From a virus, in the IMG/VR virus record IMGVR_UViG_3300014202_001569, positions 26,218-90,217 of that record: a DNA stretch of 64,000 nt; one strand, written 5' to 3'. A model generated the notes under the pieces. That model saw only the letters and a program-made list of their open reading frames with translations, searched no databases and was not told the origin of the DNA. Every line of letters starts with the position of its first letter. Position 1 is the first letter of the stretch. Positions 39,948 to 62,309 of this stretch are shown here, one piece after another. Both the position numbers and the translations under genes were made by a program.

Positions 39948-39948
39948 G

Positions 39949-40188: not shown

Positions 40189-40423
40189 CCTTCAACTCCT
40201 CTTTGAAGTCATCCCAATAGTCGTCGGGCAAGTCATTCTCTTCGGGCGGATACAACTGAGCCATGATGAAAGCCGTGTACGCCGCCGTTCCAGGCTGAGG
40301 CCCATTCGGACCAAAATCCGTCTTGATGCCCTGGCAACACACGCAGTCCTTATGACAGGACACAGCACGATCTTCACACGTCTCATGATCGTTATGATCG
40401 GGATGTTCGCATTTCATGTTCAT
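40178..40423 (-). CDS. Leaderless Cys/His-rich acidic ORF
   Basis: ATG exactly 9 nt after GTACC. Confidence 0.7.
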   Translation of the reverse strand: MNMKCEHPDHNDHETCEDRAVSCHKDCVCCQGIKTDFGPNGPQPGTAAYTAFIMAQLYPPEENDLPDDYWDDFKEELKDGL

Positions 40424-40446
40424 GCCCTTTTTGGTACAATTGGAAT

Positions 40447-40647
40447 TTAGGCCGCTTTCCCGATGACAACCTTTGCCATACCCATCAACGTGCGGGCAAT
40501 GGCATCCTGTCTGTCAATCGCCTGCACCTTGTAGAGCGTAATCAAGGTAGGCGACAACGCATCCTGCACTAACTTGCGGAACACTCGCACCTTGTAGCCC
40601 TGGCTTGGATAGCACGGATGATACACTTCGACGTAGAACTCTTTCAT
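40447..40647 (-). CDS. Cassette ORF ending -GKAA
   Basis: Motif 40670 and AAGGAG. Confidence 0.7.
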   Translation of the reverse strand: MKEFYVEVYHPCYPSQGYKVRVFRKLVQDALSPTLITLYKVQAIDRQDAIARTLMGMAKVVIGKAA

Positions 40648-40682
40648 GTTTGTTCTCCTTACCTAAACTGGTACAATTGGAA

Positions 40683-40871
40683 TTAGAAGGGGATTTCTTC
40701 TTCCACTTTGTTCCACGTTGCCCGATAGGTAGCGACTCTGGCGACTTCATCGCTCCGAACCCATTCGCCCTTGAGTTGCGGGGGCTTGCAGCACAGTATC
40801 AACCGATGAAAGTTCCCTTCCTTCTGATGCGCCACCACGTCATCCCCGAACTCATCAATCGTTTCGTGCAT
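40683..40871 (-). CDS. Cassette ORF
   Basis: Start MHETIDEF. Confidence 0.65.
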   Translation of the reverse strand: MHETIDEFGDDVVAHQKEGNFHRLILCCKPPQLKGEWVRSDEVARVATYRATWNKVEEEIPF

Positions 40872-40951
40872 GTTTGTTTTCTCCTTACCCAAACTGGTAC
40901 AATCGCAATTAGCCCTAAACGAAAAAGGGCGGGATTGCTCCCGCCCCACCC

Positions 40952-42061
40952 CTACTTCTTATTGAATAAACCCTTCAAGATGGAATCTTCCGCCTTCAAC
41001 CATACCTCCTTGAGCGGAACCTTATGCTTGCGGGCATTGAACAACACGCCAGTAAACACCGTCTCACCCTCAATCAAGATGGCAAAATCCTTCTGGTTCT
41101 CTTCATCCTTGACGCAGTGCCACAACGATTCCAATTCATTGTAAGCACCATCTACCTTGCCCTTGTAATGCTTGAAACAATCCGTAATTTCAGGATACGT
41201 CGCAAGCAATTCGTCGCCTTCACCCTCCAAGATGAACGGCAACAGAGTCGAAGGATTGTAAAGCGCGTCACCATTCGCACCCTTCATCTTATGCAGCGAT
41301 AGATAACGCTTGTTCTTGATCTTCCAACGACGGTTCGCGTCATCCTTCACAACGCAACCTTCCCACGTCGCTTCTGGCTGCGAATTGACGTAATCCGTTA
41401 CGTCGTCAGCACTTCGGAGCGAATACTGGCCAACCGTCTTGAACAGTGGGACATTTTGCGGGCCAACTTCTTCTTCGCCACAGAATGCGGAAAGCTGGTA
41501 GACGCACGGCTGAGCATACTCCCGAACCACCTTGTTCCAAAGGGAGCAAAACTCGCAAGCGTAACTCAACGAAGGATCAAGGTACAATTGTAATTCTTGC
41601 AAGTCCTTGATGCCCAGCGCCTGTAAGATACCTTCCTTCCAGGTGAAGGAAGCTGGCATCTTATGGTAGTTCGCCTGCCATTCGGTGTTGAACATGCCCA
41701 TGTTCGCGTAGGAACCACGGGTATTCACACGCCATTCGCCATCGAAGTGATAGAACAGCAGCAAGCTGCCGTCTACCTTCTCCAGCGCAACAGACTTATC
41801 CCAATTGAACAGCGGCATTTCGTCCGCTACTTCACCCCAATTGAAAAATCGGGGGAAGGCACGCGCCACCAGCGAATGGTCCTCAGTGTTGAGAACTAAG
41901 CCACGGCATTCGCGGACAATGGGATCAGTCTTCGGAGAGTCGATTTGGCTATAGTTCAGGATAGCCAGGGGAAGCGTATCATGGCGATTGACGGAGATAT
42001 GTAGTTCCGTTTCCAGGTCCGTCAGAGTCTTGCCAGAACGCAGATAGTCGATAGTCTTCAT
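40952..42061 (-). CDS. rnl1: RNA ligase, T4 Rnl1 family
   Basis: RECRGLVL, RAFPRFFNWGE, EKVDGS (adenylation Lys), EGCVV, KIKNKRY. Confidence 0.9.
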   Translation of the reverse strand: MKTIDYLRSGKTLTDLETELHISVNRHDTLPLAILNYSQIDSPKTDPIVRECRGLVLNTEDHSLVARAFPRFFNWGEVADEMPLFNWDKSVALEKVDGSLLLFYHFDGEWRVNTRGSYANMGMFNTEWQANYHKMPASFTWKEGILQALGIKDLQELQLYLDPSLSYACEFCSLWNKVVREYAQPCVYQLSAFCGEEEVGPQNVPLFKTVGQYSLRSADDVTDYVNSQPEATWEGCVVKDDANRRWKIKNKRYLSLHKMKGANGDALYNPSTLLPFILEGEGDELLATYPEITDCFKHYKGKVDGAYNELESLWHCVKDEENQKDFAILIEGETVFTGVLFNARKHKVPLKEVWLKAEDSILKGLFNKK

Positions 42062-42120
42062 TTTCTTTCTCCTCTAATCTAATTGGTACAATCGCAATTA
42101 GAGGAGAAAGGGACGGCCCC

Positions 42121-42510
42121 TTATTGGGGGCCATCTTCCTGCTTTCTCCTCTTTTTGGGTGTTGCCAGTGGCATCATGGGAGGCATTCCGCCTTGCTGTT
42201 GCTTGGCACCGTCCTGCTGCGCCTTGACGAACTCTTCCGTAACACGCATCAGGTTCAGGTATCGACAGTCCAGGGTCAGAACAGGTTCACTCGGATCAGA
42301 CAAAAGTTTGCCCACAAAGTAGGGCAGGCAAATTGCCTGAATGTGCAAGCTCTGGCCCATGATCGGCGCACCGTCTTCCGTCTTTTTCAGGTTGTAGACG
42401 CAGACGTACTGGCCAACCTCAAGATCGTCTTCCGCCAGCATCACCCCCACGCGCTTGCGAGGCGTTTCTTCCATCGCGTCGTCATAGTCTTCTTGTTCTT
42501 GTCCAATCAT
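42121..42510 (-). CDS. Hypothetical protein
   Basis: Motif 42547 and GGAG SD. Confidence 0.65.
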   Translation of the reverse strand: MIGQEQEDYDDAMEETPRKRVGVMLAEDDLEVGQYVCVYNLKKTEDGAPIMGQSLHIQAICLPYFVGKLLSDPSEPVLTLDCRYLNLMRVTEEFVKAQQDGAKQQQGGMPPMMPLATPKKRRKQEDGPQ

Positions 42511-42559
42511 CGCTTTCTCCAGTTAAGGTTAGTTACACCCTAGATTGGTACAATTGCAA

Positions 42560-42805
42560 TTAAATCGCCATCCGTTCTGACAACCAGTTAGGAATGGAGT
42601 CCGCTGAACCGTTGTATACATACTGCCCATTACTAGACCACTTGAAAAAGTGAAAGTTGTCGTTCTGGACATTATAAACGGCAATGCGGTCTAAGTCAAC
42701 CACGTTAAAGTAGCGGACGCCATAGAACTTACAAATCCCTTCGACCGTTCTTAAAGCGTCCACCAGCTTGATTACTTCTCCCAAGGGGCTTTCGACGCTA
42801 GACAC
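42560..42805 (-). CDS. Hypothetical protein
   Basis: ORF track; stop codon fused to the motif. Confidence 0.55.
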   Translation of the reverse strand: MSSVESPLGEVIKLVDALRTVEGICKFYGVRYFNVVDLDRIAVYNVQNDNFHFFKWSSNGQYVYNGSADSIPNWLSERMAI

Positions 42806-43212
42806 CGCTCAACCGTTAAAGGTTCACAGCGGTTTCGCATCGCCTCCACCTTGTCCTGCGGCACCCCATGCACGTTCTGAAACGAACCGTGACAAGGGAA
42901 GAAGAACACTGGCACCCCAAGCTCTTGCGCCATCTCGACATACGGCTTGGCTTCCCATGCCTGCGTATTCGTATTGTCGATAATGACCGTCTGACCGAAC
43001 TCCAAGGCTTGCCGTGCCATCTTCTGATTGATAGCGTGATACACGCCAACCTTCGACGGGTCGAATTTATAAACGCCGTCCACCTCAAATTGCTTATCGG
43101 TGGAACAGACCTTCACATCATGACCCAGCGCCACCAGCATAGCCCGAATCGTCTCAGCTACGGTGGACTTGCCCGAACCACTCGGACCCTGCATGATTGC
43201 GAGAATGTTCAT
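42772..43212 (-). CDS. AAA_33/N4BP2-like polynucleotide kinase
   Basis: MQGPSGSGKST P-loop, VIIDNTN, NVHGVP. Confidence 0.85.
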   Translation of the reverse strand: MNILAIMQGPSGSGKSTVAETIRAMLVALGHDVKVCSTDKQFEVDGVYKFDPSKVGVYHAINQKMARQALEFGQTVIIDNTNTQAWEAKPYVEMAQELGVPVFFFPCHGSFQNVHGVPQDKVEAMRNRCEPLTVERCLASKAPWEK

Positions 43213-43428
43213 GTTTGCTCCTTTTGATTGCCCATTATATCTGGTACAATCGCAATTAGCAAGAGAGGGGAAAAGGGCGGGTTTGCTGTCCCCGCCCGCA
43301 TCATCAAAGCTGTCTAATTAAGTGTCGGCACTTGATTTCGGGCGCTAGAGGCCAACCCCCTAGCGCCCAGCTATCAGCCGCAGAATAGGTATGTTCCTTG
43401 CATTTAATATCATTTAAGGTTTCCTTTG

Positions 43429-43632
43429 TTACGCCGCTGCTCGACGTTGCCCGATGTGATCGTTCAGGGCAGAAATGGAGCAGCTATGCCAGAACTTCTC
43501 AATCAATAGCGGACGCCAGCCCTTCCCATACCAGATTTGCGCAATCGCCAGCGCCGTCTCACGCTCTTTCGCCGTAAACTCCTGATAGAGTTCACCTTCC
43601 ACTGGATGCGTACCCTTCAAGCCATACAGCAT
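43429..43632 (-). CDS. Hypothetical protein ending -RAAA
   Basis: Start corrected to MLYGLKG after GGAGG; the longer track start overlaps the tRNA. Confidence 0.65.
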   Translation of the reverse strand: MLYGLKGTHPVEGELYQEFTAKERETALAIAQIWYGKGWRPLLIEKFWHSCSISALNDHIGQRRAAA

Positions 43633-43661
43633 TGCAAGCCTCCGAATAGAGAAAAGGTCAG

Positions 43662-43736
43662 TACCGCTAGGGGGATTTGAACCCCGCATTTTCTGGTTGA
43701 AAGCCAGGTGTCCTATCCAGATTAGACGATAGCGGC
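43662..43736 (-). tRNA. trnE: tRNA-Glu(UUC), CCA not encoded
   Basis: GCCGCTA acceptor; CTGG-CTTTCAA-CCAG anticodon arm; GGGG-TTCAAAT-CCCC T-arm; 3' A then CTG. Confidence 0.92.
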
Positions 43737-43743
43737 ATAACAG

Positions 43744-43830
43744 TGAGCCGAGTAGGAGTTGAACCTACAATGCGCTAGCTAGGCGCGCCTGGGTTACAGC
43801 CAGGTGGACTTGCCAATGTCCAATCGACTC
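43744..43830 (-). tRNA. trnY: tRNA-Tyr(GUA), long variable arm, CCA not encoded
   Basis: GAGTCGA/TCGGCTC acceptor; CCTGG-CTGTAAC-CCAGG; GTAGG-TTCAACT-CCTAC. Confidence 0.92.
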
Positions 43831-43863
43831 ATTTGGGCGACACCTAGTTTGGTACAATTGCAA

Positions 43864-44082
43864 TTACGCTTCCTTGTAGTAATCGTCTTGCGGCTGCCGC
43901 ATATCGAAGGGAAAGTATTCCCGTCCCGCCAGCGGCATATCCTCACTGTTAATCGGGTCGCCGTCTTCCGTTTCCCACTCAACGCCACCATGATCGTGAA
44001 TCTTGAACTCTTGCTTGATACATTCCCCCGCGTCATTGAACGTCTGTTCCACAACGCCAGGGGAAAACTTCTTGAACAGCAT
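43864..44082 (-). CDS. Acidic hypothetical protein
   Basis: Stop codon fused to the motif. Confidence 0.65.
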   Translation of the reverse strand: MLFKKFSPGVVEQTFNDAGECIKQEFKIHDHGGVEWETEDGDPINSEDMPLAGREYFPFDMRQPQDDYYKEA

Positions 44083-44092
44083 GTTAGCTCCT

Positions 44093-44263
44093 TTATTTGC
44101 GAAGACGCTCTTTATGGTACAATTGCAATTTCTCTTCCATCTTCGCCACCAATTCCGCTGGTGCCTTCACCCATTTCAGCCAGTTGATTGTGTTCTGCCC
44201 ATCATTGAACCAATCGAAGCGTTCGATCAGTTCAGGATGGGTCAGAACAGCACGCACAATCAT
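44093..44263 (-). CDS. 56-aa ORF containing the motif (KLQLYH)
   Basis: Manual translation MIVRAVLTHPEL...KERLRK*. Confidence 0.55.
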   Translation of the reverse strand: MIVRAVLTHPELIERFDWFNDGQNTINWLKWVKAPAELVAKMEEKLQLYHKERLRK

Positions 44264-44264
44264 G

Positions 44265-44522
44265 TTACGCCGCCTTCTTTGTCTGCTGCTCCATCACAGT
44301 TAGCTCCAGATAGATCGGGAGCAGGTAGACGTTCGTGGGCTTGCCCTTCTGCCCTTCCACCTTGCGGGGCTTGCCCATCTGACAGTGGCCCAGCTTCACC
44401 AGCGTTTTCAGGAAACCCTGCGCATCCATGTAGTCCAAACCGTTCGCATCAGCCAGTTCCTTGATGCTCACCTCATGCACGCAGTCATAAGGCTCATTCA
44501 CTTTCAGCTTCTTCGGAATCAT
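44265..44522 (-). CDS. Winged-helix-like protein ending -KKAA
   Basis: VSIKELADANGLDYMDAQGFLKTLVKLG...GKPTNVY. Confidence 0.6.
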   Translation of the reverse strand: MIPKKLKVNEPYDCVHEVSIKELADANGLDYMDAQGFLKTLVKLGHCQMGKPRKVEGQKGKPTNVYLLPIYLELTVMEQQTKKAA

Positions 44523-44630
44523 CGTTTCCCCTTGTTTGAAGTTCGTTGCACCTTAACTGGTACAATCGCAATTAGAGGATGAAAAAACAAAGAAAGGGGA
44601 AGGGATTTTACTCCCCTCCCCCCTTAGACG

Positions 44631-45005
44631 TTACGCGGCGGGCCGACCACGCTTGAACGTGATGCCCTCGGCTTCCGCAACCTGTCGGCACAAGGTCAGT
44701 GACACCTTGAGCTTGCGTTCCTTGCGGAGAAACTCGCGGCCCTTCGTGTAACCGAACCGCTTCAGCGCCGCTGCCACGATTCGACGGTCAGTGCCGTTGT
44801 AGACGCGGGGCCGACCTGGACCACGTTCACCCTTTGCCTTCACCTTGACGGGCTTGACCTGCTTGCGGGGGCCACGTTCCACCCCCTTATCGACACGCGG
44901 CATACGGTAGACATAAAAGCCCTCCGTAGTCAGCTTGCCACGGCACTGCGGGCCGACTTCATCCCGCACAACCCGCCCACCAAAGTTCAGTTCGTTCGCA
45001 GCCAT
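44631..45005 (-). CDS. Basic putative DNA-binding protein ending -PAA
   Basis: RGPGRPR and KRGRP AT-hook-like motifs. Confidence 0.6.
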   Translation of the reverse strand: MAANELNFGGRVVRDEVGPQCRGKLTTEGFYVYRMPRVDKGVERGPRKQVKPVKVKAKGERGPGRPRVYNGTDRRIVAAALKRFGYTKGREFLRKERKLKVSLTLCRQVAEAEGITFKRGRPAA

Positions 45006-45071
45006 GAGAAACCTCCAGAGAAAAGAGAAAGTTTGTTACTCGCACTTAGTTTGGTACAATTGCAATTGGAA

Positions 45072-45548
45072 TTAGAACCTTACCTTGTTCCAAGTCCAGA
45101 CGAACGGATACGCAACCGCCGTCTTGATTCGTTGCCACGCAGCCGCCTTCATCTCAGCGATGATTTCGGCCACCATCCCCCGCACCACTTCCTTGTTCAC
45201 CAGCGCCGCACAATGTTCCTTCACTTGCGCCAGCACCGCTTCCTTGATGTCATCATACTTGCTCTCAATGCAAGTCTCGATTTCATCCTTTGCCTTCACC
45301 TCGATTTCATCCCACCAGTCGTAATCCCGCACCGCATCATGGATTGCGTCGGAGAAGTCGTGGTCATTCATCGCCTTCTCAACCGCATCGTCCACGTCGA
45401 TTTCGTCGCGGATAGCACTCTTCACCTCGTCGGAGAAGTCGTGATTCTCCAGAGCCGACTCCACCTCATCCTTGAAGTCACGCTCACCAAGATACGCCTC
45501 GATGCCTTCATTGATGATCGTTTCCAACTGCTCGCCAAGTCCGCTCAT
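45072..45548 (-). CDS. Acidic helical-repeat protein
   Basis: HDFSD repeated; very D/E-rich. Confidence 0.7.
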   Translation of the reverse strand: MSGLGEQLETIINEGIEAYLGERDFKDEVESALENHDFSDEVKSAIRDEIDVDDAVEKAMNDHDFSDAIHDAVRDYDWWDEIEVKAKDEIETCIESKYDDIKEAVLAQVKEHCAALVNKEVVRGMVAEIIAEMKAAAWQRIKTAVAYPFVWTWNKVRF

Positions 45549-45600
45549 GTGTTCCCCTTGCGTTTGAGTTCGTCACACAATCATTCTGGTACAATTGCAA

Positions 45601-45801
45601 TTAGGTGGGATTCCCGTTTTCATCCACGTCGTTCCCGTCAGCATCTTCGATACTGAACACGTCGAATGTATCTTCGACGTACTTCACTTCGTCATCTTCG
45701 GGAATGTTCATGTTCGCAATCAGGTCCGCAAGGTCTTCGGGCTTACAACGTATCGTTGTCTTGAGCCGCACTTCGACCTCGACCGTGTATTCTTTCTCCA
45801 T
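45601..45801 (-). CDS. Acidic mini-protein
   Basis: Stop codon fused to the motif. Confidence 0.7.
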   Translation of the reverse strand: MEKEYTVEVEVRLKTTIRCKPEDLADLIANMNIPEDDEVKYVEDTFDVFSIEDADGNDVDENGNPT

Positions 45802-45914
45802 TTGCTCCCTTTCATTTTGAAACTCGTTGCACCCTTACTGGTACAATCGCAATTAGGCACTGTACAAAAAAATAGGGCAGCCACCATTGGCTGCCCTACA
45901 CACAAGGGATTGAT

Positions 45915-46649
45915 TTACGCGGCTGCCTTGTCCGTCCCGAACAGCAAGTCCTTTGCGTAACCATACAGACGGTTCAAGACGCCTAGCGGACTATCACTCA
46001 CCCCTACCTTGAGGTGCGATAGGAAGTGAACGGGACGCAACACCTTGATACAAGCCAAGATGCCTTCCTTCGAGGGAACATACATCGCCAACCGCTCGAA
46101 GAATCCATCCTTAATCTCATACTTTTCCACTGGTGCCAGCATCAAGCGCCGTTCGTCATCGCTGAAATTGTCCATCAGCAACTTCATCAAGCGGCCCGCA
46201 AGCTCTTGCTCAATCGGCGCACCCTGGATAAGCTCAGAAAACGGACGAATCGTGGTCTTATCTTCACACGCAACCTCATTCGTCACCAGCTTATCCGCCA
46301 TATCCGCCGTCAAACCCGCCTTGACCAGCGCCGATACCAACTTCTCTTTCGCCCCGCCCTGGCATTCAGGATCAGCCTGCGGATAGAACTTGGCCTGCAC
46401 TTGGAACAAGCCCTCAATATCCGCCTTGCCGTCCCGCGTCACAATGAGACGGGGATTCGTCGGCTTGCAACGTAGCTTGGACAAACTCTCAGCGAATGAG
46501 TCAATCAGACTCTCTTTCAGGATACCCTCTTCCGCCTTCATACGGGCCTCAGCCTTTTCGTAGATTTGCTTCGCATAAGCAAACCGCTCAAAGGACGGCA
46601 GCAACGCGGCGGATACAGGAACCTGCGGACGATCTTGCTTCTTAGCCAT
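45915..46649 (-). CDS. Hypothetical protein ending -KAAA
   Basis: Start corrected to MAKKQDR; the longer track start overlaps the tmRNA-like RNA. Confidence 0.75.
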   Translation of the reverse strand: MAKKQDRPQVPVSAALLPSFERFAYAKQIYEKAEARMKAEEGILKESLIDSFAESLSKLRCKPTNPRLIVTRDGKADIEGLFQVQAKFYPQADPECQGGAKEKLVSALVKAGLTADMADKLVTNEVACEDKTTIRPFSELIQGAPIEQELAGRLMKLLMDNFSDDERRLMLAPVEKYEIKDGFFERLAMYVPSKEGILACIKVLRPVHFLSHLKVGVSDSPLGVLNRLYGYAKDLLFGTDKAAA

Positions 46650-46711
46650 CGGTCGTTCTCCCCTTTTGGTGAAAGTGTCGGAACACCTAGTTTGGTACAA
46701 TTGCAATTCAG

Positions 46712-46847
46712 TGGACCAGTCGGGAATTGAACCCGATTCCAGTCGATTTGCTGACAAACTACGCTACTTGTGTTGAGGCATCTTTTCGCGTCTGACCTAC
46801 CACGGTCAAGCCTGTCACTTGGATCGCTGTCGAAACCTGTCTGGCCC
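46712..46847 (-). ncRNA. ssrA: Minimal tmRNA-like RNA (136 nt)
   Basis: GGGCCAG/CTGGTCC-A acceptor with G3.U pair; ACAGGTTTCGAC D-loop; P2 helices AGCGAT/ATCG(A)CT and TGACAGGCT/AGTTTGTCA; GGAA connector; TCGGG-TTCAATT-CCCGA T-arm. Confidence 0.8.
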
Positions 46848-46861
46848 GATTGTGTAAGTTA

Positions 46862-46994
46862 GCCCCTAGCGGTTATCGTCGCCGCACCTACCTGCAAAGC
46901 CTAGCGTACCATTGGCCACTGGCACGTCCTACATGGCATGTATACCCACCATTAAGAGTCGGCTCCAGGTCGCACTACATTATGCGATAGGGGC
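46862..46994 (-). ncRNA. Unknown structured RNA (133 nt), tRNA-like closing stem
   Basis: GCCCCTA/TAGGGGC terminal stem; internal stems TCGCA/TGCGA, CCTG-GAGCC/GGCTT-TG-CAGG, TACAT/ATGTA, CGTGCCA/TGGTACG and GCGG/CCGC; 5' end 9 nt after GTACC. Confidence 0.65.
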
Positions 46995-47070
46995 AACTTA
47001 ACTGGTACAATCGCAATTACATCATGCCCTAAAAAAGGGGAAGGGCTTTCGCCCCTCCCCCTCGGCCCCC

Positions 47071-48087
47071 TTAGACCGCAAGCCCGCTGGCCATTTCCAC
47101 CGCTGCGGACAGCGCCAGCTTGTTCATGGTGTTGTTCTGGCCAAACCAGAGCGAATTGAGTCGGTTGTCCTCATTCCGCCCGTTGACGTAGCTGAGATAC
47201 TCAGTCACGCCATTGTAGGCACTCCAGTACGTTCCCCGAACGCTAGGCAGGTTGTTCCCCTTGCCCGCTTCACAAAGCTCAATCACCTCTTCCAGAATGT
47301 TCTTCTGGCGTTCGGAAACCACTTCCTTCAACTCCTTGGAACGCTCCCCCGCCGTCCAGATGGCGCTATCCTCCGCGTCCACCTTGAACACCCGCTTGAC
47401 ATACTTGCGGAGGTCATTCTGGTTAATGCTCTTATTAACCAGCAAGCGATACTGCTCAGCAGTCGCCTCGAACTCCGCATTCATCAAGTTCATAACGTCC
47501 CGAAGATTTTCGAGATTCGTATGAATGTTCTTGCTATGCTTCAAGCGAATCAGCTTGGAAGCATCAGCGGAATGCGCCATCGAAAGCGTATTCCAGCAGA
47601 CCACGCGAATCGGCGTGAACCCGCAACGAACCGCCAAGCTACCGTCGTGGCTATGGCTGAGAAGAATGTACTTCTCAACCACATCCCCCGCCGCAATCTC
47701 CATCGGATCACGGTTCAGCTTAGCCAGCGCCCAAATGCGGCTGCCTTCAAACAGCGCCCCACCAGTATGCAGGGCCGCTTCCTTCTGGTCCAACCACGGT
47801 TGAAACCAGCCGAACGCCTCTTGATTCTGGAGAATCGTGTAGCGCTCACCCACCATGTTCGCCAACACCTTGCCATCAGTGGAACGAACCACTTCCCACG
47901 CATCAGCAGGCACCCACGCATCATTCACCTTGCGGGCCAACTGACGCTTCTCCGCGTCCCAATTCAGGCCAGCTTTCTCGATGAACAACTTGTGGTCATA
48001 CATCGCCGCCTCTTCCGTGACCGCCGTACCCAAACCATGCCACGGCGTTGCACCCACGAAAGCCATCGACTCAACTGCTGCAACCAT
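47071..48087 (-). CDS. DUF932 (TIGR03299-like) phage/plasmid protein
   Basis: VESMAF...PWHGLG, GALFEGSRIW, LLSHSHDGS, FTPIRVVCWNTL, GTYWSAYNGVTEY. Confidence 0.85.
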   Translation of the reverse strand: MVAAVESMAFVGATPWHGLGTAVTEEAAMYDHKLFIEKAGLNWDAEKRQLARKVNDAWVPADAWEVVRSTDGKVLANMVGERYTILQNQEAFGWFQPWLDQKEAALHTGGALFEGSRIWALAKLNRDPMEIAAGDVVEKYILLSHSHDGSLAVRCGFTPIRVVCWNTLSMAHSADASKLIRLKHSKNIHTNLENLRDVMNLMNAEFEATAEQYRLLVNKSINQNDLRKYVKRVFKVDAEDSAIWTAGERSKELKEVVSERQKNILEEVIELCEAGKGNNLPSVRGTYWSAYNGVTEYLSYVNGRNEDNRLNSLWFGQNNTMNKLALSAAVEMASGLAV

Positions 48088-48210
48088 GTTTCTCTCCCTT
48101 AAAGTAAAGTTTTCGGTTCCCTTGTGCCTTAACTGGTACAATTGCAATTTGGCCAAATCCAACTTCCCTTATCTTACCCCAAAAAACACCAATGTAAAAA
48201 GGAAGTCAGA

Positions 48211-52565: not shown

Positions 52566-54694
52566 TTAACTTTCCTTTTCGATGTTAATAAGCTCTTGGA
52601 GAGCATTAGTGGGGAAGGGAATATCGAATGATTCGACTAATTCGTTGCAGCAATCGAGGTCGATTGGGGCTTTTTCGTTGGCTAAAGAGAACAGGAGCAT
52701 GGCGAGTTCGCCTAATTGCTGGGCATCCATTGGGACATTGTTAATAGCGAAGGTATTATCTTCGCGGTTACAATAGATGTTGATTTTAGTTTCTTCTTCG
52801 ACGTTATTGGGGTTAATAGCGGTGAAGAAGATGACTTCATTATCCATGATTGCACCTTTTGGGTTTTGGGCACTTAGCTTGGTACAATTGCAATTAGCGG
52901 GCCTAGCCATTCGCCGTCGATTTCATCTAGTTTACGTTTATCATAAAGACCTTCGTGGCACCAGCGGGCATAGAAGACGCGGTTTTCTGGTTTGATATTA
53001 GTGATAGACTCATAGCGTGAGACATTGGGGTTCGATTGTCTTTCTTTTTCGATGGATTGATCGTGGTCGGTGAAGACGTAGTAGATGGATTCTGCTTTGT
53101 ATTTATTTTTTCGCCACCAGTAGTAGCCTGATTGGGTGGGTTTGGTAGTGGTCCAGTCCATTATTATCCTTTCACGGCTTCGCCAAGGAAGACATAGGTA
53201 TATGTGTGGCCTACCATAGAGCCAGTGTGTTCATAGCGGACGAATTTAACACGGATAGAGCAGGATGAGCGGTCCCAGCCTTTGATCGTGGAGTGACCGT
53301 TTTCGGTCATGCCGAGTAAGTGGGCAGCCATAGTATAGGCTTCATCGCAGGCGCGGTCGAAGTTAGCTTCTTTGCGGGTGATGAAGATTTGTTCGCTTTT
53401 AAGGATTTTCATTGATTTGCTCTAATTCGTATTTGATTTGCTTGGCCAGGTCTGTTTCGAGTTTGGAGTACCAAGTGTTAAAAGCGCCTTCTTTATTATC
53501 TTCTTTGGAGACGAATTTAACGAAGTCTTTAGCCAGGATGCGTAGAGCTTCTTTACGGGACATATTCATCCTTAAAATTAGTGGGGCAAGATTCATTTGG
53601 GCAGAGTGAGCCTTGATCTTCGCGTTTGACATAGCCGCAATCGGGGCATTCATCCTCGAATACGACGGCGCATTTATCACCGAAGATATTATCCTCGAAG
53701 AAGGTTTTAATTTCTTTGCGGACGGTATTACGGTCGGCGTCACGCCAGATAATAGCGTCTTCGATGGTTCCAGGGAGTTCGATGCTGGCGTGTCCATCGG
53801 GGATACCTACTGAGCTATCACCACGGACGGTAAGGTAGATTTTCATTAGAATGGGATTGTTGGGTCTATTGTGGGTGGTTTAGGGTTATCGAGGTAGTCG
53901 ATTTTGGTACGCATATTATCAATTGCGTCTTCGGTATCGGTTCCTGTAGCGAACAGTTCTTTGCCGTCTTTACGGAAGGTAATTTCGGTCCAGTATTCTT
54001 CGCCGCCGTAGTTAGGGGCGTGTTTACGTTCGGTATGGAACCATTTCCAGCCTTTATATTCATTGCGGGCGGCTTGTTGGGCGGGGATGGCGAGGTTTTT
54101 CATGATACCCATTAGACGCGCTCCTTGAGAATCTTGATAATTTCTTCGAGAATGTATTGTGCCTTATAGGGCATACCTTCATCGGGAGCGTTGTTTGCGG
54201 CGAGGTTAATCGCCTTGAGGGTATCTTGGGCGATGCGGTCAGCTTCGGAGTTCAGGTGTTTGTATTTGGTATTCATGCTTAGTTTGGTACAATTGCAATT
54301 AGTCGTCTTCATGGCAGAAGACATGCCCGCAGGTGCATTCTTCGCCTTCGGTGGCATCAGCGGGGATTGTTTCCTTACAATCAGGGCATTCGCCGTTTTC
54401 GTAACAGTCTTGCACTTTACGGGCGGGCAATTCGCTTTCCAGGGCTTCTTTCCATTCGGGGGAATTTTGGTCGGCAATCCAGTTAATAATGGCTTCAATA
54501 GCGCCAGGGTTATCTGAGAGAAACTCAATCAAGTCGCCGTGGCAGCCATCTTGGGCGAATTGACCACGGTGCATGGCATCTTGATAGCCCATCGTATTGA
54601 CGAGGCGGCAGAGGTTTTCGACTCCTGTAGAGCCTTCCATACAGTGCATTTTCTTTTCGTCGCGGTATTCTTCGATCAAATTGAGCATATCCAT
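52566..54694 (-). CDS. Tandem small hypothetical ORFs (52566-52847, 52874-53161, 53164-53412, 53399-53569, 53553-53846, 53846-54112, 54112-54276, 54299-54694)
   Basis: Tight operon-like packing; starts corrected to the first ATG after the motif or an SD. Confidence 0.6.
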
Positions 54695-54707
54695 CGTTAT
54701 TCCTTTT

Positions 54708-55028
54708 TTAGTCGTGGGAGCCGACGCAGGTTTTGCCATGTTCGGGGCATTGGAAGCTAATAAAGCATACGCAATTGCACAATTCAGCTTTCTCGCAGCA
54801 AGCGTAGCGTTTCTTGTCTGCGGCCTTGATACATTCGCTGGAGCAGTTCTTTTGTTCTGCTTGATCCAGGGCGCGGGCGAAGGTATCGTCGTCTAGTGGT
54901 TTGCCGCAGGTACGACAATTAGCATAGCGTGCGATCCAATCGGCGCTTAGGGGATATTCTTCTGTCTTCCAGCCAGGATAGACCCAGCGGGCGACACCAG
55001 CGTTGCGGTCGATAGTGATGGTTTTCAT
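54708..55028 (-). CDS. Cys-rich Zn-finger-like ORF
   Basis: Start MKTITID 10 nt after the motif; CRTC, CSSEC, CPEH. Confidence 0.65.
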   Translation of the reverse strand: MKTITIDRNAGVARWVYPGWKTEEYPLSADWIARYANCRTCGKPLDDDTFARALDQAEQKNCSSECIKAADKKRYACCEKAELCNCVCFISFQCPEHGKTCVGSHD

Positions 55029-55308
55029 ACTTACCTCTGGTACAATTGCAATTTCACTTTGCAAATTGGACAAGAAACAAACCTGTGCGGACGATCTTCC
55101 AGCCATGAGCCTTATACCATTCGGCTCGTTTCAGGCCAGCCAGCGTGCTAGTGTCAACGGTTTTATATTTCACTTGGCGCACTCCGCAAGCCATGCTTGC
55201 ATAACGGCTTGAGCCATTGCATTGCCTTCGCAGGAATGCAAGACTTTATAGTGGCCATTACCAAGATGGCGGGAAATATACTTGCCATGAACGACGCAAT
55301 TGGACGGA

Positions 55309-55686
55309 TCATTTCCGAGTAACTGAATCCAGGTCTTCACTTGTGTTCTCCTGTTGGTATGCTTTGATTGGTACAATTGGAATTTTCTGGCATACCTTAA
55401 TCAAGGCATCGCGGAGTTGTTCAGCGATGATACGGGGGAGCATCATACTGCTACCGTGCCTGAAATGAATCCAAACGTCATTAGATTCGCTGGCGTAGCA
55501 TGGTTCGACCATGATAAGCGGGCCAGTTTGGTAATCATTTTCAGGTGGTGGCAGGGATTTAGGGTCGTGGAGTGGGCCTTGATGTTGTCTATGATCCTCA
55601 AATTCTTGCCCATCATATCGCTTGCCTGGGAAGCATTTATGATCGTAGATATAGGTTTCAAAACCAGTTGGGTTGCTTGATGGCAT
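55309..55686 (-). CDS. Hypothetical protein
   Basis: TAATG-coupled to an upstream ORF at 55686-55850. Confidence 0.55.
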   Translation of the reverse strand: MPSSNPTGFETYIYDHKCFPGKRYDGQEFEDHRQHQGPLHDPKSLPPPENDYQTGPLIMVEPCYASESNDVWIHFRHGSSMMLPRIIAEQLRDALIKVCQKIPIVPIKAYQQENTSEDLDSVTRK

Positions 55687-55850
55687 TATTTATCTCGATT
55701 CTGGAGCATTTTGATAAAGATAGTACGGTCTTCGGGTGGTAGAGACAGGGCGAAGAGGACTGCATCGCTCAGCGTGTTATTATGGATCAATAGTTCGACC
55801 ACATCTTTGCGGTTGCCATTGGTCCAATTCTCAAGCATTTCGTCCATCAT

Positions 55851-56519
55851 TTACTCCAGATAGGGGCAGAAATCGCCTTGGGTACAGCCAGGGACGGGGA
55901 TTAGGGTATTGCTACCTTTAACGTCACAGCCTTCCAATGCGGCGAGGGCTTTGAACCAGTTAGATTTAGGTGTATTGGCGAGTAGGACTAACAGGTGGAA
56001 GCCGCCGCGAGTTTTAAGGATTTTGAACGCATTATCGGGCAATAGTTCCTTTATTTTAGGCAAATGGAGAATGGGTTCGATGTTATCGTAGTCAAAATCA
56101 ACGAAGACTTTACGGTTAGTGGCGTGGTGAACGGCGGTGCGGGCGATGGAAAGCGGGTTGAAATCAGCTTTTCCATCGGCAAAGCACTTGGCGAGTTCGA
56201 CCAGTAGTTCTTTGTTTGCCTTAACTATATTACGGGGATTTAGCGCAATGTAAAGGGCGAGGGCTTCTTGGGGAACGTCAATTCCGTCTCTTTTGTAGCC
56301 ACCGAAAGAGCATTCCAGTCTAAGGATATGTTCTTTTAGGGTATCTTTGCTGCTGGTGAAGCGGGCGAGTTGGTTGTCTTTGAGGTTCGGGACACTGGAG
56401 CAGTATTTGTGTCTAGCGAACAGGGCGAGATAATAGACTTCATCAGCTTCCAGGTCGGGAAGGAAGCTAATGAAGTCATCTAGTTTAGTTTCATCGAGCA
56501 GGACTTTGTAGTGGGTCAT
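55851..56519 (-). CDS. Putative AEP/primase-fold protein
   Basis: Leaderless start MTHYKVLL; VFVDFD (DxD) and KTRGGFH motifs. Confidence 0.4.
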   Translation of the reverse strand: MTHYKVLLDETKLDDFISFLPDLEADEVYYLALFARHKYCSSVPNLKDNQLARFTSSKDTLKEHILRLECSFGGYKRDGIDVPQEALALYIALNPRNIVKANKELLVELAKCFADGKADFNPLSIARTAVHHATNRKVFVDFDYDNIEPILHLPKIKELLPDNAFKILKTRGGFHLLVLLANTPKSNWFKALAALEGCDVKGSNTLIPVPGCTQGDFCPYLE

Positions 56520-56730
56520 GCTTACCTTGGTACAATTGCAATTCTTTTTGCTTCTTGATCCAGTTGCGGTGCCGCTTGCGTCGTTTCTTTTTGGTTTTGG
56601 TTTCAAACGAACTATGGATTTTATGTTCTTTATCAATCCATCCTCGTTGTCTTTTCCATGCTTTGAGCATGTTTTTGAAAGCGTCAGGTTCCTCCTTTCG
56701 CTCTACTCTGAGCCGAACTATATTTGCCAT
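56491..56730 (-). CDS. rpsU: Ribosomal protein bS21-like
   Basis: VRLRVERKEE..AFKNMLKAWKRQ.GWI.KE.K....FETKTKKKRRKR parallels bS21 (V...E..E.ALRRFKR...G...E......YEKPS.KR.RK). Confidence 0.5.
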   Translation of the reverse strand: MANIVRLRVERKEEPDAFKNMLKAWKRQRGWIDKEHKIHSSFETKTKKKRRKRHRNWIKKQKELQLYQGKHDPLQSPAR

Positions 56731-56770
56731 TTATAATGAGGGGTACGTTTTGCCCTCATTATCATTATAG

Positions 56771-58976
56771 TTACTCTTGCGCAATTCCTTCCAGAGCGGC
56801 GACCAATCGGGCCTTGGTAGCTGGATCATTACGCAATTCCTTGAAGGTATTTTCAAGGGAGAATGATTTGACAAGTTCATTGACGAGTCGCTTGCGGAGC
56901 GCCGACTTCAATTCATTCTTAAACTCAGGTTCCTGAATGACTTCATGGACGGTTTCTTGGAGAAGGGACGACAGCCCTTGCATCTTGCTTACTGCATCCT
57001 TAATAACGCCATCAAAGGGGCTATTATAGCCGAACAGATTACGTTTTAGATAATCTTTCAGCCCTTCGTTGACGGCGCTGATAACAGCGGTGTGGGTCAG
57101 GTCCACGACTTCGGTTTCAATACTCATATTTGATCCATTCTACGGCTGCTTGGTTGTTAGCTGGGAAGAACGAGATAGCGTATGCTTGGGCTTCGTAGAA
57201 ATTAGCGAATGATTTAACGAAGGCCGTTTCGGGCAACAAAGGTATTTTATAATCTTTGGCGTAGACGGCATTAACGGTAACATAATAGGGAGTTGGGCCA
57301 TCGAGTATGGTTACTCTTCCTATTTCGATTGGGCCAAGGCGTGCGACATAATACATACTCTATTTAGTCGCTAGTTTAATTTCGGTGATGGACAGGACGG
57401 CATTTTTGTTAATACGGATGGTAGTGGTGCCCGTCAGGTCAATCAGGGTAACGCAATCGGGTTCAACGGCGACGATTTTATGGGTGCCAGCGCCGTCGAA
57501 AACCGTGATCTTATAGCCTGCCGTAACTTCTTTCACAGACACATCTTGGCCCTTTTTGAGTGGGGCGAAGAAATCAGCGAAGGAGGTGGAAGCCAGGGCA
57601 AGAATCAGGATAAGGGAAGCAATCTTAGCCATAGACCAGTTCTCCGAAAAGGGCGCATTGGAGTAGAACGTCAGCGGTTTCGGCGTCGTCATTTTCATCC
57701 ACGATGTTCTGGAAGTGTTGTGGGTACTTTTTGGCCATAACATCGAAGCCAATGAACAGTTTTTCGCGGGTTAAAGTATGTTTTGTATTTTCGCTATCCA
57801 CGATACCCATAGCGCCATCCTTGATGGTAGGCAGGATATAGGCGGGGTGCCAAGTTGAGCCAATGGAATCGGGCACTGAGCGCTTGCCGCCTTCCTTGAA
57901 ATCATCCAGGGTGGTGTCAGGGGGACAAATGTACTTGTCCAGTTTCATCCAGTAATTGCTGCCGCCTTCAAAGGCACTGACCAGCAGATTGCGGGTGGTT
58001 TCCAGGGTGACATTATGCTGAATGGTGACGGTTTTGAAGGTTGTTTCAGGCATTATATTTCCCCGTAGTGGTGAGACGCATTACCAAAGGTTTTATCTTG
58101 GGCTAAATCATCGAACAGGGTGGGCGGTGTTCGGATATTAAGTTCAGCCAAGACAGTCTTGACTTGCTCCAGGGTCATTGCGGGATTAGGAAGATTAAGG
58201 TTGCTGAAAACATAATTATCGTTTTCAGCATATAAATCCTTTTCATCTTCCACGACGAGGAAATACTGTTGTAGTGGGCGGTCCCATCCCGTCATGATGT
58301 GGAGGTTATCTTGCTTAAACCGACGCTGGGACATTCTTGTTCTCCAGATAGGCGTTAATACCCTTGTAGGTATAAGGGATATTAAGGCGTTTGCAGGTGG
58401 CTTTGATTGCGCGGCCATCCTTGTTATAGGTGCCAGCGCGGAACGCTTGGATCATTTTGGCGGCGACGGTTGGGACATTTTCAACAGGCCAGACGTACTC
58501 TTCGGGGTACTTGAGGACAGCCTTTTCAAGTTCCTCGGTGTAGGTCTGAGCGAAGGTATCGAAGTTAGTCATTTGGTTCTCCATGCTATGATTGGTACAA
58601 TTGCAATTAGGGGGCTAGGCAGCTAGAGAACATTATGCCCCTCTAGCTACTCAGCTAAGCACCGCTTACCCCCTAATTATTCTGCTCCCCAGCCCGCGAG
58701 CAAGGTATTAACCTCGCCATTTCGCTTGAAATAAACCGCAACGACGGTTTCCCATTTCTCAGCCTGATCCAAGCAGAACTCTTCGGCTTCCTTGAACGAT
58801 TCAAACTCTTTATGGAGTTGGTAATCGACAGAGCGAACCGTCTGGAAATCACCGCTATAGCCTTCCTGATGGCCATTTTCGGAACGGTCATTGTCTTGGC
58901 GTTGGCGGAAAGCCTTATCAATATCGGTACGGGTGGCTTTACCCTTAATAACGTGATTGATATTAGTTGCGCCCAT
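56771..58976 (-). CDS. Tandem hypothetical ORFs (56771-57127, 57117-57356, 57360-57632 with signal peptide, 57625-58053, 58053-58334, 58315-58584, 58677-58976)
   Basis: ORF track and overlap pattern; 57360-57632 starts MAKIASLILILALASTSFA. Confidence 0.6.
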
Positions 58977-58978
58977 TA

Positions 58979-59287
58979 TTAACCTCCTAGAATTTCGTAG
59001 GCTGCTTGGACTTTAAGGAACATTTTCGCCGCATCTGCATCGCCAGGGTTACGGTCGGGGTGATATTTCATTGCCATTTTGCGGTAGGCAGTTTTAATAT
59101 CAGCCATCGTAGCGGTATTGTTAATACCTAGAATGTCATAGGGGCTAGAGCCGCCGACGACTTCCTTTGCCTTGTTAATACCCATACGGGTATTGAAGTT
59201 AGAAACCCATTCTTCGGGTGAGCCGTGGCCTTGGCTAGTATCATAGCGTTTCTTATAAACGCCCATGAAATCTTTCTTTTCCTTCAT
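58979..59287 (-). CDS. J-domain (DnaJ) protein
   Basis: SPYDILGI...IKTAYRKMAMKYHPDRN...F..V..AYEIL. Confidence 0.9.
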   Translation of the reverse strand: MKEKKDFMGVYKKRYDTSQGHGSPEEWVSNFNTRMGINKAKEVVGGSSPYDILGINNTATMADIKTAYRKMAMKYHPDRNPGDADAAKMFLKVQAAYEILGG

Positions 59288-59547
59288 CGTGCCTCCAACT
59301 TAACTTCATGGGGACGTTCGTAGCAAGGAAGACGCAGGACTTCGAGGTGTTTACAGTGGCGATAGCGACGATAGCCAGGGCAAGAGCAAGCGAAGTGTCG
59401 CTTATTCTTATTCTGAGCCACGATATAAACGCGGTCAGACGTTTGGGACCGAATCTCAAAGCGATTGGTCCATTGAGCGTTATCGGGAAGCACAGAATCG
59501 ACACGAAGGACAGGGACATTGGTACGAACAGCGGGAACAGTGTTCAT
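59284..59547 (-). CDS. SWIM-type Zn-finger protein
   Basis: YIV...CSCPGY....CKHL. Confidence 0.8.
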   Translation of the reverse strand: MNTVPAVRTNVPVLRVDSVLPDNAQWTNRFEIRSQTSDRVYIVAQNKNKRHFACSCPGYRRYRHCKHLEVLRLPCYERPHEVKLEAR

Positions 59548-59559
59548 TGTTACTCCTGT

Positions 59560-62287
59560 TTAGTGATCGTTGCCCCTAGTTTGGTACAATTGCAATTCGT
59601 CTTGTCTTGCCTTTATTTCCTTTTGGAGTGCTTCCAATTTAGCTGTATTCAAGCCTAAATGGGGAGCGAGTTTTAGTTCGCGGGCCAGACATTCATCGTC
59701 CATCTGGATCAATTGCATTTTGTATAGCAATATACCTGATGTGGGGATTAGAGTCTTTTTTGCTGGTCGCATGGTAGCCGCCTGAAAACGAATTTATTAT
59801 TCAATAGGGTGTAGATGATAAGGGTATTACCATTTTCCACCTTAAGTCTTGGCTTCATTACAAGGTCATTAAAGCCAATGCCGTCTGAATAGAAGACAAG
59901 GTTGGCGCGTTGGCCGAGCAAGTCTTCAAATTCATTGTCGCTGACTGCGGTTAATTCATACATTAGGCTACGCGGCGAATAACCGCCTCCGTCCAGTTGT
60001 CGGTATAGGAATTACGACAATCTTGATAAGATTGGTGTTTAACGATTTCGATGATACCTTTGTCTCGCAGGGCGATCATGGCATTGAACTCACGATTGCC
60101 GTAGCTACCGTTTTTACGGTGGGTACGATAGCCGTGGAGGACAACGGTGATTTTATGCGGGTTGGCGTCGATGCGGCTTAACAGGGCTTGTTCTGTTTTG
60201 TTCATACCTTGACTGGTACAATTGCAATTACAGAGCTTCTGCTTTAGCCTTAACTTGAGGTGTTAATTCGCGGGATACTAGCACCCATTCGCCCGAATTG
60301 AGCATATTATCTAATGGGTTCCATCCTTCTTCAAACTGGACGTGATTTTGTTTCTTATTAACGGACTTCACCTTACAGAAATAGCCGTGTTTATATCCCT
60401 TATTCTTGGGTAATACCCATACATCGCCAGGGAAAACCTCTCCGATGGTGAGCGGTGCGGTTCTGACCTTACGTTGTTCAGCCTTGAGTTTGGCTTTAAG
60501 AGTTTTGAACTCTTTGTTTAGTTCAGCCAGTTTTTGCTCAAGAGCTTCCATGATTTAACCCCAATTGATATAGTGCATTGCGCCTTCTGGCAACTTGGAA
60601 CGGGTGATGCCTTTGATCTTCAAAACATCCTCTGACCGATCATCGGGAATTTCTCTCCAATCGCCAGTTTTATGAAAGCTGAAATATCCTTCTGGCATGT
60701 AGCCAAGAGTACGTTTCAGCTTTTCCCTTGATCGGTGAGAGGTGGTTTTAATTATCATTAGATTCGCCCTTTAAGTTCAGGATACAATTCAGCCAGAGTT
60801 GGCGTGCGGCCCAATTCGGCAATCAGTGCCCGTTTTTCGGCATTCAGCTTTGCGGACATTTGACGGACATGGGTTGCCGATGCTTCGCCGTCACAACAGA
60901 GATTTTCGGGACTTAGCCCATTCTCAACGGAGCGTAGTTCATTGAGAATTTCCGCTTCGGTGCGCTTGGCTGCGGGTTTCTTACCCAGGTAGAGTTTCAC
61001 ACTTGCCGCTGCGAATTTATATCGCTTCTTATCGCTGAGCGATTCGGCAATGACGGGGTAGCGGGTAGAGCGTGGCTTGAGGCCAACGATACGATAGGTG
61101 CGAATGCCATCCCGAAATTCCTTGCCCAAATCATCGGGAGCAAGGCCATAGCGATGTGCCATGTATTTGAACTCATTAGCGGCGCGAGTCAATGCTTCGC
61201 CACTTTCGGCCAATTCAGCCAATTCAACCTTGAGCGTCAAGGTGGTGGAATCGAATTTACCACTGCCGATAGTAACCTTAATGTCATGTTCCTCCTCGAA
61301 CGCTTCGAGGTGGGTTTTCAGTGCTTCGGACAGGGTGCGAGCGGTGGTCTTATCCATGATATTCTCCTATTGGTTGTGCCTAGTTTGGTACAATTGCAAT
61401 TTCAGACCAGCCCGCCATTTCACAGCGGTAGAGTTTATTGTTTAGTTCCAATACATCGCCTACGGAGGTAGAGCGGCCTTGCTTGACGCATTGAACGTCT
61501 TCATTGAGCCACCATTCATTACTAATATGGTTGGTTAGCTCAAAGGCCACGTCTAGGTCATCCGTATCGACGTGAGCAACTAGCTCATAATCGGTAGGGA
61601 ATGCTAGTTGACTAAAGCCGAATGTAGGCTTAATAGCGTGCCAGACTTTAATCACTTTACTTTCTCCAATTTGACATTGGTGCCGCCCTTGGCCTTAGCT
61701 TCTTGAGCCAGGGCCAGAGCGTCCTTTTTATACCTAATCTGGCGTGGGAAATGGTCAGCCTTGAAATCCCAGCCCTTATTGCCGCCACGATAGGGAGCGG
61801 TCGCATGAACAAGATACATTTATTCTCCTTTAAGTGCCAACGAGGGTGCCGTCTTTGCGTCTGATTGTCCAAGCATTTTTGCCATCATCGGAGCGTGGCC
61901 ACTTACGAGCGTAAGCAAAACTCTCCAATGTATTCAATTCCATTTGCAGAGCAAATGAAATCATATTTTCACCTCTGGCACGGAAGTAGGCTAAGAGACA
62001 ATAATGGACTTTAAGAGCCTTGAATAACTCTTCATCGGTCCAAGCAATCTTAGTTCCCAGGTCTTTCGCCACTTCACGAAAATCGTTCGGTGTCATTAAA
62101 ACTCCACGACTGGAAGATGTTTGACGCTATGAGTTTCTTCAACGTAGGCATTTTCCGCATTCCAAGTATGGTCTTGGCTGCTGCGGTTAAATGACCGTAC
62201 AATTTCTAATGCCTTTTCAAAAGGCATTCCCTTGGACCGTCGTGATTCTTTGTAGTTCTTATGAACCACTACGCTGTAATTCATCAT
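59560..62287 (-). CDS. Tandem hypothetical ORFs (59560-59772, 59748-59963, 59963-60205, 60228-60551, 60555-60758, 60758-61357, 61380-61655, 61830-62096, 62096-62287)
   Basis: ORF track; abutting genes; two leaderless starts. Confidence 0.6.
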
Positions 62288-62309
62288 GCCCTCTTTGGTA
62301 CAATTGCAA

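Follow-up and report, generated by a model that had tools for sequence, protein, structure and literature searches.

A many-copy promoter block with a fixed predicted transcription start and a candidate class of leaderless mRNAs in a huge phage

This study concerns a many-copy DNA element in a 64,000-nucleotide (nt) stretch of phage DNA (the window), which comprises bases 245,656–309,655 of a 340,934-bp IMG/VR virus record, the huge-phage record referred to below as G000. The element, (T)AATTGCRATTGTACC(A), contains the pentamer GTACC and is probably a phage-specific promoter, with a fixed start of transcription and three kinds of 5′ end, one of which is a leaderless mRNA. It would form a single block occupying positions −25 to −9. 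The start would be fixed at the purine 10 bases past the last C of GTACC, following a pyrimidine, and would slide by one base where position 10 is itself a pyrimidine. Transcripts of the first kind would begin with a C/A-rich conserved leader of 20–30 nt that ends in GGAG; those of the second kind would open directly with the Shine-Dalgarno (SD) sequence, as the start of a mini-leader; and those of the third kind would have no leader, with AUG as their first three bases, and would be translated as leaderless mRNAs. The third class would account for 12 plus 2 of the 83 sites in the record, mostly where a small operon begins in the distal part of the array, and about one in seven genes behind the promoter should be expressed without an mRNA leader. 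From the DNA sequence we infer the exact start, the translation of the third class without a leader, and which polymerase or sigma factor is involved.

GTACC is over-represented in the window (111 copies versus 74 ± 8.5 expected), and from position 28,947 on nearly all of its copies lie on the minus strand within the block. When up to one mismatch was allowed, AATTGCRATTGTACC was found 83 times in the whole record, 81 times on the minus strand between genome positions 274,602 and 336,027. Coordinates below are those of the window unless the genome is named. The array in the window is as follows.

28947..63681, minus strand: promoter array, 66 copies of (T)AATTGCRATTGTACC(A) with at most one mismatch; it goes on past the window end to genome 336,041.

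Offsets were counted in bases after the last C of GTACC, so that position 10 is the predicted +1 and the spacer is 9 nt long. At the 83 sites, position 7 was a purine in 77, position 8 was G in 70, position 9 was a pyrimidine in 76, and position 10 was a purine in 76. The original prediction, made from the window alone, had placed a promoter at about −25 to −9, a conserved RGY at −3 to −1, and a purine at +1; all three are borne out by these counts and by the information content, which is limited to −25 to −9 plus the Y(−1)R(+1) pair. Upstream of −26 no conservation was seen in any of three genomes.

Strong terminators of the hairpin-plus-T type, with 9–14 pairs, are found 15–20 nt upstream of promoter copies in the GC-rich proximal array. 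Two such pairs are given here.

39152-39121: hairpin-plus-T terminator, before the promoter at 39108-39090.
45899-45872: hairpin-plus-T terminator, before the promoter at 45858-45840.

Because of these terminators, transcription must restart at each proximal cassette. No strong same-strand terminators were found in the distal array. Consensus matches to a bipartite sigma-70-type promoter, with −35 and −10 hexamers spaced by 16–18 bp, were at the level of shuffled sequence in the array (14 versus 13.8 and 29 versus 24.8). The block is strand-specific, is co-directional with the gene behind it in every case, and was not found inside genes. On the basis of the terminators, the strand-specificity, the information content, and the chance level of sigma-70 matches, we describe the element as a single-block promoter and not a bipartite one. 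Two other assignments were rejected by eye: for sigma-54, the GC of TTGCA is at −20/−19 instead of −13/−12, and for an extended −10 element, TG adjoins TA without a spacer base. The CAGAAGCTAATG repeat at genome 234–237 kb was also rejected as a promoter; it is a coding repeat within a 1496-amino-acid (aa) open reading frame (ORF).

The motif, or its RNA copy, might instead be a processing signal, at which a long transcript is cleaved a fixed distance past GUACC to yield leaderless mRNAs. The fixed spacing to mature 5′ features, the distal array without terminators between genes, and the tRNA and tmRNA genes just behind motif copies would all fit such cleavage, but the proximal copies, each 15–20 nt past a strong intrinsic terminator, need new initiation. 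The strand-specific, co-directional placement outside genes also argues against processing, as does the Y(−1)R(+1) pair, a combination at which bacterial RNA polymerase usually prefers to start. We consider processing very unlikely.

The evidence for a leaderless class came from tabulating ATG codons at all 83 sites. ATG was found at offset 10 in 12 cases, seven of them in the window, at offset 11 in two, at offsets 12–20 together in four, and at offset 9 in none. The spike at offset 10 has a binomial P of 5.6e-12 relative to the per-offset background; the spacing is thus not random once all copies are counted. ORFs of 54–222 aa follow from 11 of the 12 ATGs at offset 10, and ORFs of 106 and 69 aa from the two at offset 11. 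The eight candidates in the window are listed below, with the last C of GTACC as the first coordinate of each line.

40433..40447, minus strand: promoter AATTCCAATTGTACC; predicted +1 is the A of ATG 40423; ORF 40181-40423, 81 aa; second in-frame ATG at +6.
50938..50952, minus strand: promoter; predicted +1 is the A of ATG 50928; ORF 50689-50928, 80 aa; orthologues in the related contigs G001 and G002 (see below) likewise at +1.
54286..54300, minus strand: promoter; predicted +1 is the A of ATG 54276; ORF 54115-54276, 54 aa; G001 orthologue (54 aa) at +1, aligned 1-to-1.
55039..55053, minus strand: promoter with a 10-nt spacer; position 10 is T, followed by ATG 55028; ORF 54711-55028, 106 aa.
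56529..56543, minus strand: promoter; predicted +1 is the A of ATG 56519; ORF 55854-56519, 222 aa; the G002 orthologue (221 aa) has its ATG 9 nt past GTACC.
58594..58608, minus strand: promoter; ATG 58584 (89 aa); the site reads ATGGAGAACCAAATG and the transcript would read AUGGAGAACCAAAUG.
60215..60229, minus strand: promoter; predicted +1 is the A of ATG 60205; ORF 59966-60205, 80 aa; G002 orthologue likewise at +1.
62297..62311, minus strand: promoter; predicted +1 is the A of ATG 62287 (ATGATG); ORF 62099-62287, 63 aa; second in-frame ATG one codon on.

Seven of these ATGs had been predicted to begin 9 nt past GTACC and the one at 55028 to follow a 10-nt spacer; every coordinate was correct, including that of the TATG at 55028, where ATG begins at the 11th base. 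At the latter site the start would slide to the next purine. The site at 58584 is ambiguous, since an SD-led start at the in-frame second ATG (58572) and a leaderless start are equally likely. None of the eight candidate genes matched a Pfam or PHROG family.

The predicted concentration of this class in the distal, AT-richer part of the array is real: 13 of the 14 sites with ATG at +1 or +2 lie beyond window coordinate 50,000 or past the window end, and the GC-rich proximal array has one, 40433. The absence of SD sequences from most of these genes also agreed with prediction. No SD-like word was present in the 13 nt before the ATG in 10 of 13 +1-ATG genes, and the other three matched just the promoter's own AAGG; by comparison, about three-fourths of the ORFs without a promoter within 130 nt upstream had an SD (from a crude gene call). 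Any SD-like word before a +1 ATG is upstream of +1, and the predicted transcript would therefore carry no SD. Where GTG or TTG was at +1, an SD-led start was present downstream in every case; for GTG with a long ORF (eight sites) this start was 18–39 nt farther on. This result fits the need of leaderless translation for a 5′-terminal AUG (Brock et al. 2008, as cited in PMC5312081).

Position 10 is also the first base of the other two kinds of 5′ end. Both families of conserved leaders, GCCCAA… and GCAACG…, begin there, the former as the original prediction had stated. So do the SD-first leaders, a class absent from that prediction, with AAGGAG or AGGAGG at 31311, 38757, 40670, 40896, 63667, and genome 332,129, and with AGAGGAG at 42085. 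An example of each kind, and the promoter ahead of a structured RNA, are as follows.

30240..30254, minus strand: promoter with a conserved leader; leader GCCCAAACACCCCAACGGAG from position 10 (30230); SD-led ATG 27 nt after +1.
63667..63681, minus strand: promoter with an SD-first leader; the transcript would begin AAGGAGG at 63657; ATG 12 nt after +1; 229-aa ORF.
47004..47018, minus strand: promoter ahead of a folded RNA (46862-46994) and a mini-tmRNA (46709-46847); the 7-bp closing helix begins at the predicted +1 (46994).

The 5′ end of the folded RNA had been predicted to share the spacing, and 46994 is indeed the 10th base after the copy at 47004 and the first base of the closing helix. 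This coincidence is suggestive but weak on its own, because the 5′ ends of tRNAs are spread over 0, 2, 5, 11, and 26 nt after the predicted +1. The z-score of the folded RNA was only −1.5. Position 10 as the predicted start is supported by four independent features that begin there, namely the conserved leaders, the SD-first mini-leaders, the ATG codons, and the Y(−1)R(+1) pair.

The same rule was then found in related phages. G000 groups with distant T4-like myoviruses by its portal, DNA polymerase, tape-measure, and baseplate genes, and its closest deposited relative is the 595-kb uncultured phage LR756511 (portal, 81% amino-acid identity). A scan of viral contigs for the exact G000 motif gave single chance matches only, and relatives were reached instead through a protein: the product of the 222-aa +1-ATG gene (55854-56519) led to contigs G001 (159.5 kb, 86% identity) and G002 (373 kb, 78%). 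CheckV completeness was 68% for G000 and 98% for G002; G000 and G001 are incomplete. The G000 motif has no copy in G001, G002, or LR756511, the last containing just two matches with two mismatches, which is the chance level. Each relative has a many-copy block of its own, and only the core TGTACY is common to all.

G000: block AATTGCRATTGTACC; 83 sites; purine at position 10 in 76; ATG at offsets 9, 10, and 11 in 0, 12, and 2.
G001: block TAATTGnGGTTGTACT; 97 sites; purine at position 10 in 90; ATG at offsets 9, 10, and 11 in 0, 16, and 2.
G002: block CTTAGCTGTACC; 115 sites; purine at position 10 in 105; ATG at offsets 9, 10, and 11 in 0, 27, and 2.
LR756511: block AAGCTGTACN; 134 sites; purine in 78, counted at position 10 only; ATG at offsets 9, 10, and 11 in 5, 7, and 11.

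The blocks end at different distances from +1 (−9 in G000, −7 in G001, and −6 in G002). G001, G002, and LR756511 keep the 9-nt spacer, the Y/R pair, and the ATG spike, with family-specific leaders from position 10. When G000, G001, and G002 were pooled, ATG was at offset 10 in 55 of 295 sites (P = 8e-50), and 50 of these 55 ATGs open ORFs of at least 51 codons. ATGs at offset 11 had C or T at position 10 in 11 of 11 cases in LR756511 and in 4 of 4 in G000 and G001.

To these counts can be added the alignment of the genes themselves. BLASTP comparison of promoter-proximal genes in three genomes gave 11 orthologue pairs in which both members begin at +1 or +2, align from residues 1–7, and have matching lengths (for example, 54 versus 54 aa, 87 versus 81 aa, and 222 versus 221 aa). 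Pairs with ATG at +1 align from residues 1–3 and are equal in length. These alignments confirm that the +1 ATGs are true start codons. In G000, the 369-aa gene downstream of 42085 is preceded by an SD-first leader of 14 nt, whereas the G001 (366 aa) and G002 (364 aa) orthologues begin at +1 and align 1-to-1. An exchange between an SD and an ATG at +1 is understandable only with position 10 as the first base of the RNA, and we would place the start there. An exception is conserved in an orthologous pair at genome 333,698 (window 88,043, past the window end) and G001 37,986. Both sites read aaaccATGtATGATC; the +1 ATG opens just 29 or 19 codons, and an ATG four bases upstream, in the spacer, opens 91 aa.

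If transcription began a few bases upstream of position 10, within the spacer, the genes called leaderless here would have leaders of 3–9 nt. Spacer positions 5–9 (T-A-R-G-Y) are semi-conserved and could be transcribed, and the ATG peak of LR756511, split over offsets 10 and 11, indicates some flexibility. However, leader families, SD-first leaders, and ATGs share their first base in four genomes with differing spacers, and position 10 or 11, after a pyrimidine, is the only strongly purine-biased position. A start within the spacer is, we think, very unlikely.

Several observations weigh against a promoter with a fixed start and leaderless products. G000 is only 68% complete, and five of the 55 pooled +1 ATGs open short ORFs only. 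The 17-nt block, which reaches −25, is much longer than known single-element sigma promoters (8–9 nt); its information content is nearer that of single-subunit polymerase promoters, yet no such polymerase was found. The one RNA run with relatives, a sediment metatranscriptome matched by a single-gene query with a small share of words, exists only as contigs, which come from 90–95% relatives and carry no start, strand, or level information; no RNA run was among those listed for a 10-kb query. One contig runs across promoter 56529, which means that read-through RNA or DNA carry-over is present. At most distal sites the upstream gene ends at the motif's 5′ edge, usually with the TAA or TGA there, some 23 nt ahead of the ATG, and re-initiation on read-through transcripts could add to expression. 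Some G002 spacers, though few, read AAGGAGnnn-ATG, an SD-like arrangement with AAGGAG three nt before the ATG that is usable only by an upstream transcript.

The contig across 56529, the overlapping stop codons, the G002 spacers, and the lack of strong same-strand terminators in the distal part would also be expected if the promoter had the predicted +1 but the SD-less ATG genes were translated mainly by termination-reinitiation on read-through polycistronic RNA, with ATG at +1 a by-product of tight packing. Packing, however, does not predict one exact offset (0 ATGs at offset 9 and 55 at offset 10), nor a slide to offset 11 restricted to sites with a pyrimidine at position 10. Moreover, most internal genes that lack a promoter in these operons retain an SD, which makes SD-independent reinitiation the exception here, and the alternation of one gene between SD-first leader and +1 ATG among relatives is sensible only with a 5′ end at position 10. 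We regard reinitiation as an unlikely main route, and favor initiation at position 10 with leaderless translation.

As to which polymerase reads the promoter, we infer that the likeliest reader is the host core RNA polymerase with a phage-encoded specificity factor, because no recognizable phage RNA polymerase was found, sigma-like proteins are encoded, and the upstream half of the block is specific to each relative. Since even close relatives differ in that half, the specificity determinant is probably encoded by the phage. T7-like single-subunit RNA polymerase (Pfam PF00940) was not found in the incomplete G000 and G001, in G002, or in LR756511, with a T7 positive control at 1e-110. Searches for Rpb1/Rpb2 domains found none, and the beta-prime motif DFDGD was absent from all ORFs long enough for a polymerase subunit, its single match being in a 188-aa frame of G002. 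Large ORFs were considered as polymerase candidates and rejected: those of 1199, 1054, and 1495 aa had no informative family or solved-structure match, only chance-level matches (E ~0.5) to a collagenase segment, and a 702-aa ORF of the distal array resembles an SF2 helicase rather than a polymerase.

Sigma-like proteins were found in several forms. A 178-aa ORF of G000 matches Sigma70_r2 only, without region 4, and matches the PHROG family “late sigma transcription factor”; it is one of two gp55-like, region-2-only paralogues in G000, the second being at genome 66.2 kb. G002 and LR756511 have three sigma-like types: in addition to the gp55-like type, an ECF-like protein of ~160 aa and a sigma-70-like protein of 275–335 aa. 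The 335-aa sigma-70-like gene of LR756511 (153,144–153,622, L197) immediately follows one of the AGCTGTAC promoters of its own phage, and positive feedback would be possible if its product recognizes that promoter. A search for the MotA C-terminal domain found none, a weak negative since the control also gave no match. Neither IF3 nor ribosomal protein S21, both sought because they might assist leaderless translation, was found. If a phage sigma is needed, the genes behind the promoter would be middle genes and not strictly “early” ones, as they had originally been called.

The gp55-like proteins may instead serve a TATATAA-type motif before structural genes. Over the whole G000 record, upstream regions outside the array are enriched in ATATATAA, ATATAATA, and TATAAATA, which resemble T4 late promoters, for which the sequence read by gp55 is TATAAATA. 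Two of these sites are in the window.

25366, minus strand: late-promoter-like site, ATATATAAggtATG.
12962, minus strand: late-promoter-like site, TATAAATAgttATG.

TATATAA was followed after 3–4 nt by an ATG that opens an ORF of at least 60 aa in 13 of the 71 G000 sites and 13 of the 77 G002 sites; among 121 TATATAA sites in LR756511, ATG was at offset 5 in nine and at offset 8 in six. These counts suggest a second class in which the start codon adjoins the promoter, perhaps read by a gp55-like sigma.

Other features of the array and of the genome were recorded. In contigs of relatives (~90–95%), from a DNA metagenome and from the sediment metatranscriptome, the promoter block is the precise point at which different cassettes meet. 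Joints or loose ends were at 58594, 44548-44582, 52897, and 59574-59597; in one relative, for example, a conserved GCCC leader stands at the place of the G000 ATG 58584. Such joints at a shared promoter are consistent with cassette exchange or with assembly collapse. The mini-tmRNA region (46710-46847; window 46669-47335) was the deepest in the metatranscriptome contigs, with a depth of 150–220 versus 2–20 elsewhere. The flanks there differ from G000, so a relative's copy of the mini-tmRNA was abundant in that RNA library. Besides the mini-tmRNA of the window, G000 has a full-size tmRNA with the tag ATPYEYALAA and 19 tRNA genes, exclusively for Leu, Ser, or Tyr, the class with a long variable arm (genome 74,672–109,686, outside the window, and genome 8,558–8,914). 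Unlike G000, G002 has 58 tRNAs of most specificities.

Leaderless phage transcripts are already established; Thermus phage phiYS40, for example, has leaderless middle and late transcripts (Sevostyanova et al. 2007, as described in PMC3594737). In Deinococcus-Thermus, a “−10 region adjacent to ORF” pattern has been reported in which the fixed distance from promoter to ATG is diagnostic (PMC12340547). As far as these accounts describe them, those systems resemble the one studied here in having a promoter element at a fixed short distance from the start codon, a class of genes without SD, and a diagnostic spacing, but they use a host-type −10 element and the host sigma-A holoenzyme in a phylum rich in leaderless mRNAs. 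In the present phages a phage-specific block of 17 nt, with TGTACY at its core, takes the place of that element, most phage genes are SD-led (GGAG), and the predicted leaderless type makes up only 14–23% of the promoters.

The holoenzyme with phiEco32 gp36 uses a single element, tAATGTAtA, and starts 6–8 bp downstream of it (PMC8948821); in mechanism it is the closest precedent. Like the promoters of gp36 and of T4 gp55, sigma factors lacking region 4, the block lies near −10 without a −35 element and would fix the start 6–9 bp downstream, and gp55-like region-2-only sigmas are encoded. The distance from element to start, 8–9 nt past GTACCA, fits the 6–9 bp reported for gp36 (PMC8948821). The block is, however, about twice as long as theirs, extending to −25. 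T7-type promoters are likewise long, nearly invariant, and present in many copies, with specificities that differ among close relatives and a purine start, but in the present phages there is no T7-like polymerase gene, the block stops at −9 to −6 and not through +1, and A is as common as G at +1. The early promoters of phiKZ and AR9 share with this array the many copies of one promoter, the arrays of small genes of unknown function, and the very large phage. Those phages, in contrast, have their own multisubunit polymerases, none of which is encoded here, and long leaders: no leaderless transcript was detected for phiKZ (PMC8244752), and the 5′ untranslated regions of AR9 are 26–491 nt long (PMC5312081).

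The clade-wide promoter family with a TGTACY core and a phage-specific upstream half appears to be undescribed in the literature searched. A broader proposal, which we put forward as speculative and rather doubtful, is that these promoters define a transcription system, so far undescribed, in a clade of huge T4-like phages. A phage factor, either a gp55-like paralogue or a protein of no known family, would read a block of 17–20 bp whose upstream half co-evolves with it in each phage, would fix the start to one base, and would allow the first genes of operons to toggle between SD-led and leaderless forms. If this is true, the toggle would be a timing switch at the level of translation, acting, for example, once the phage alters the host initiation apparatus.

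For the phages themselves, the rule would place +1 from sequence for about 80–130 promoters per genome in a clade of uncultivated phages of 340–600 kb, and would correct the start-codon calls of dozens of small genes. The different upstream half in each relative, together with the lack of a phage polymerase, points to a promoter-specificity factor. One promoter with three designs of 5′ end, and orthologues that switch between an SD-first leader and no leader, amount to a natural experiment that would allow a direct test of what leaderless translation costs, and what it brings, where the host uses SD sequences.

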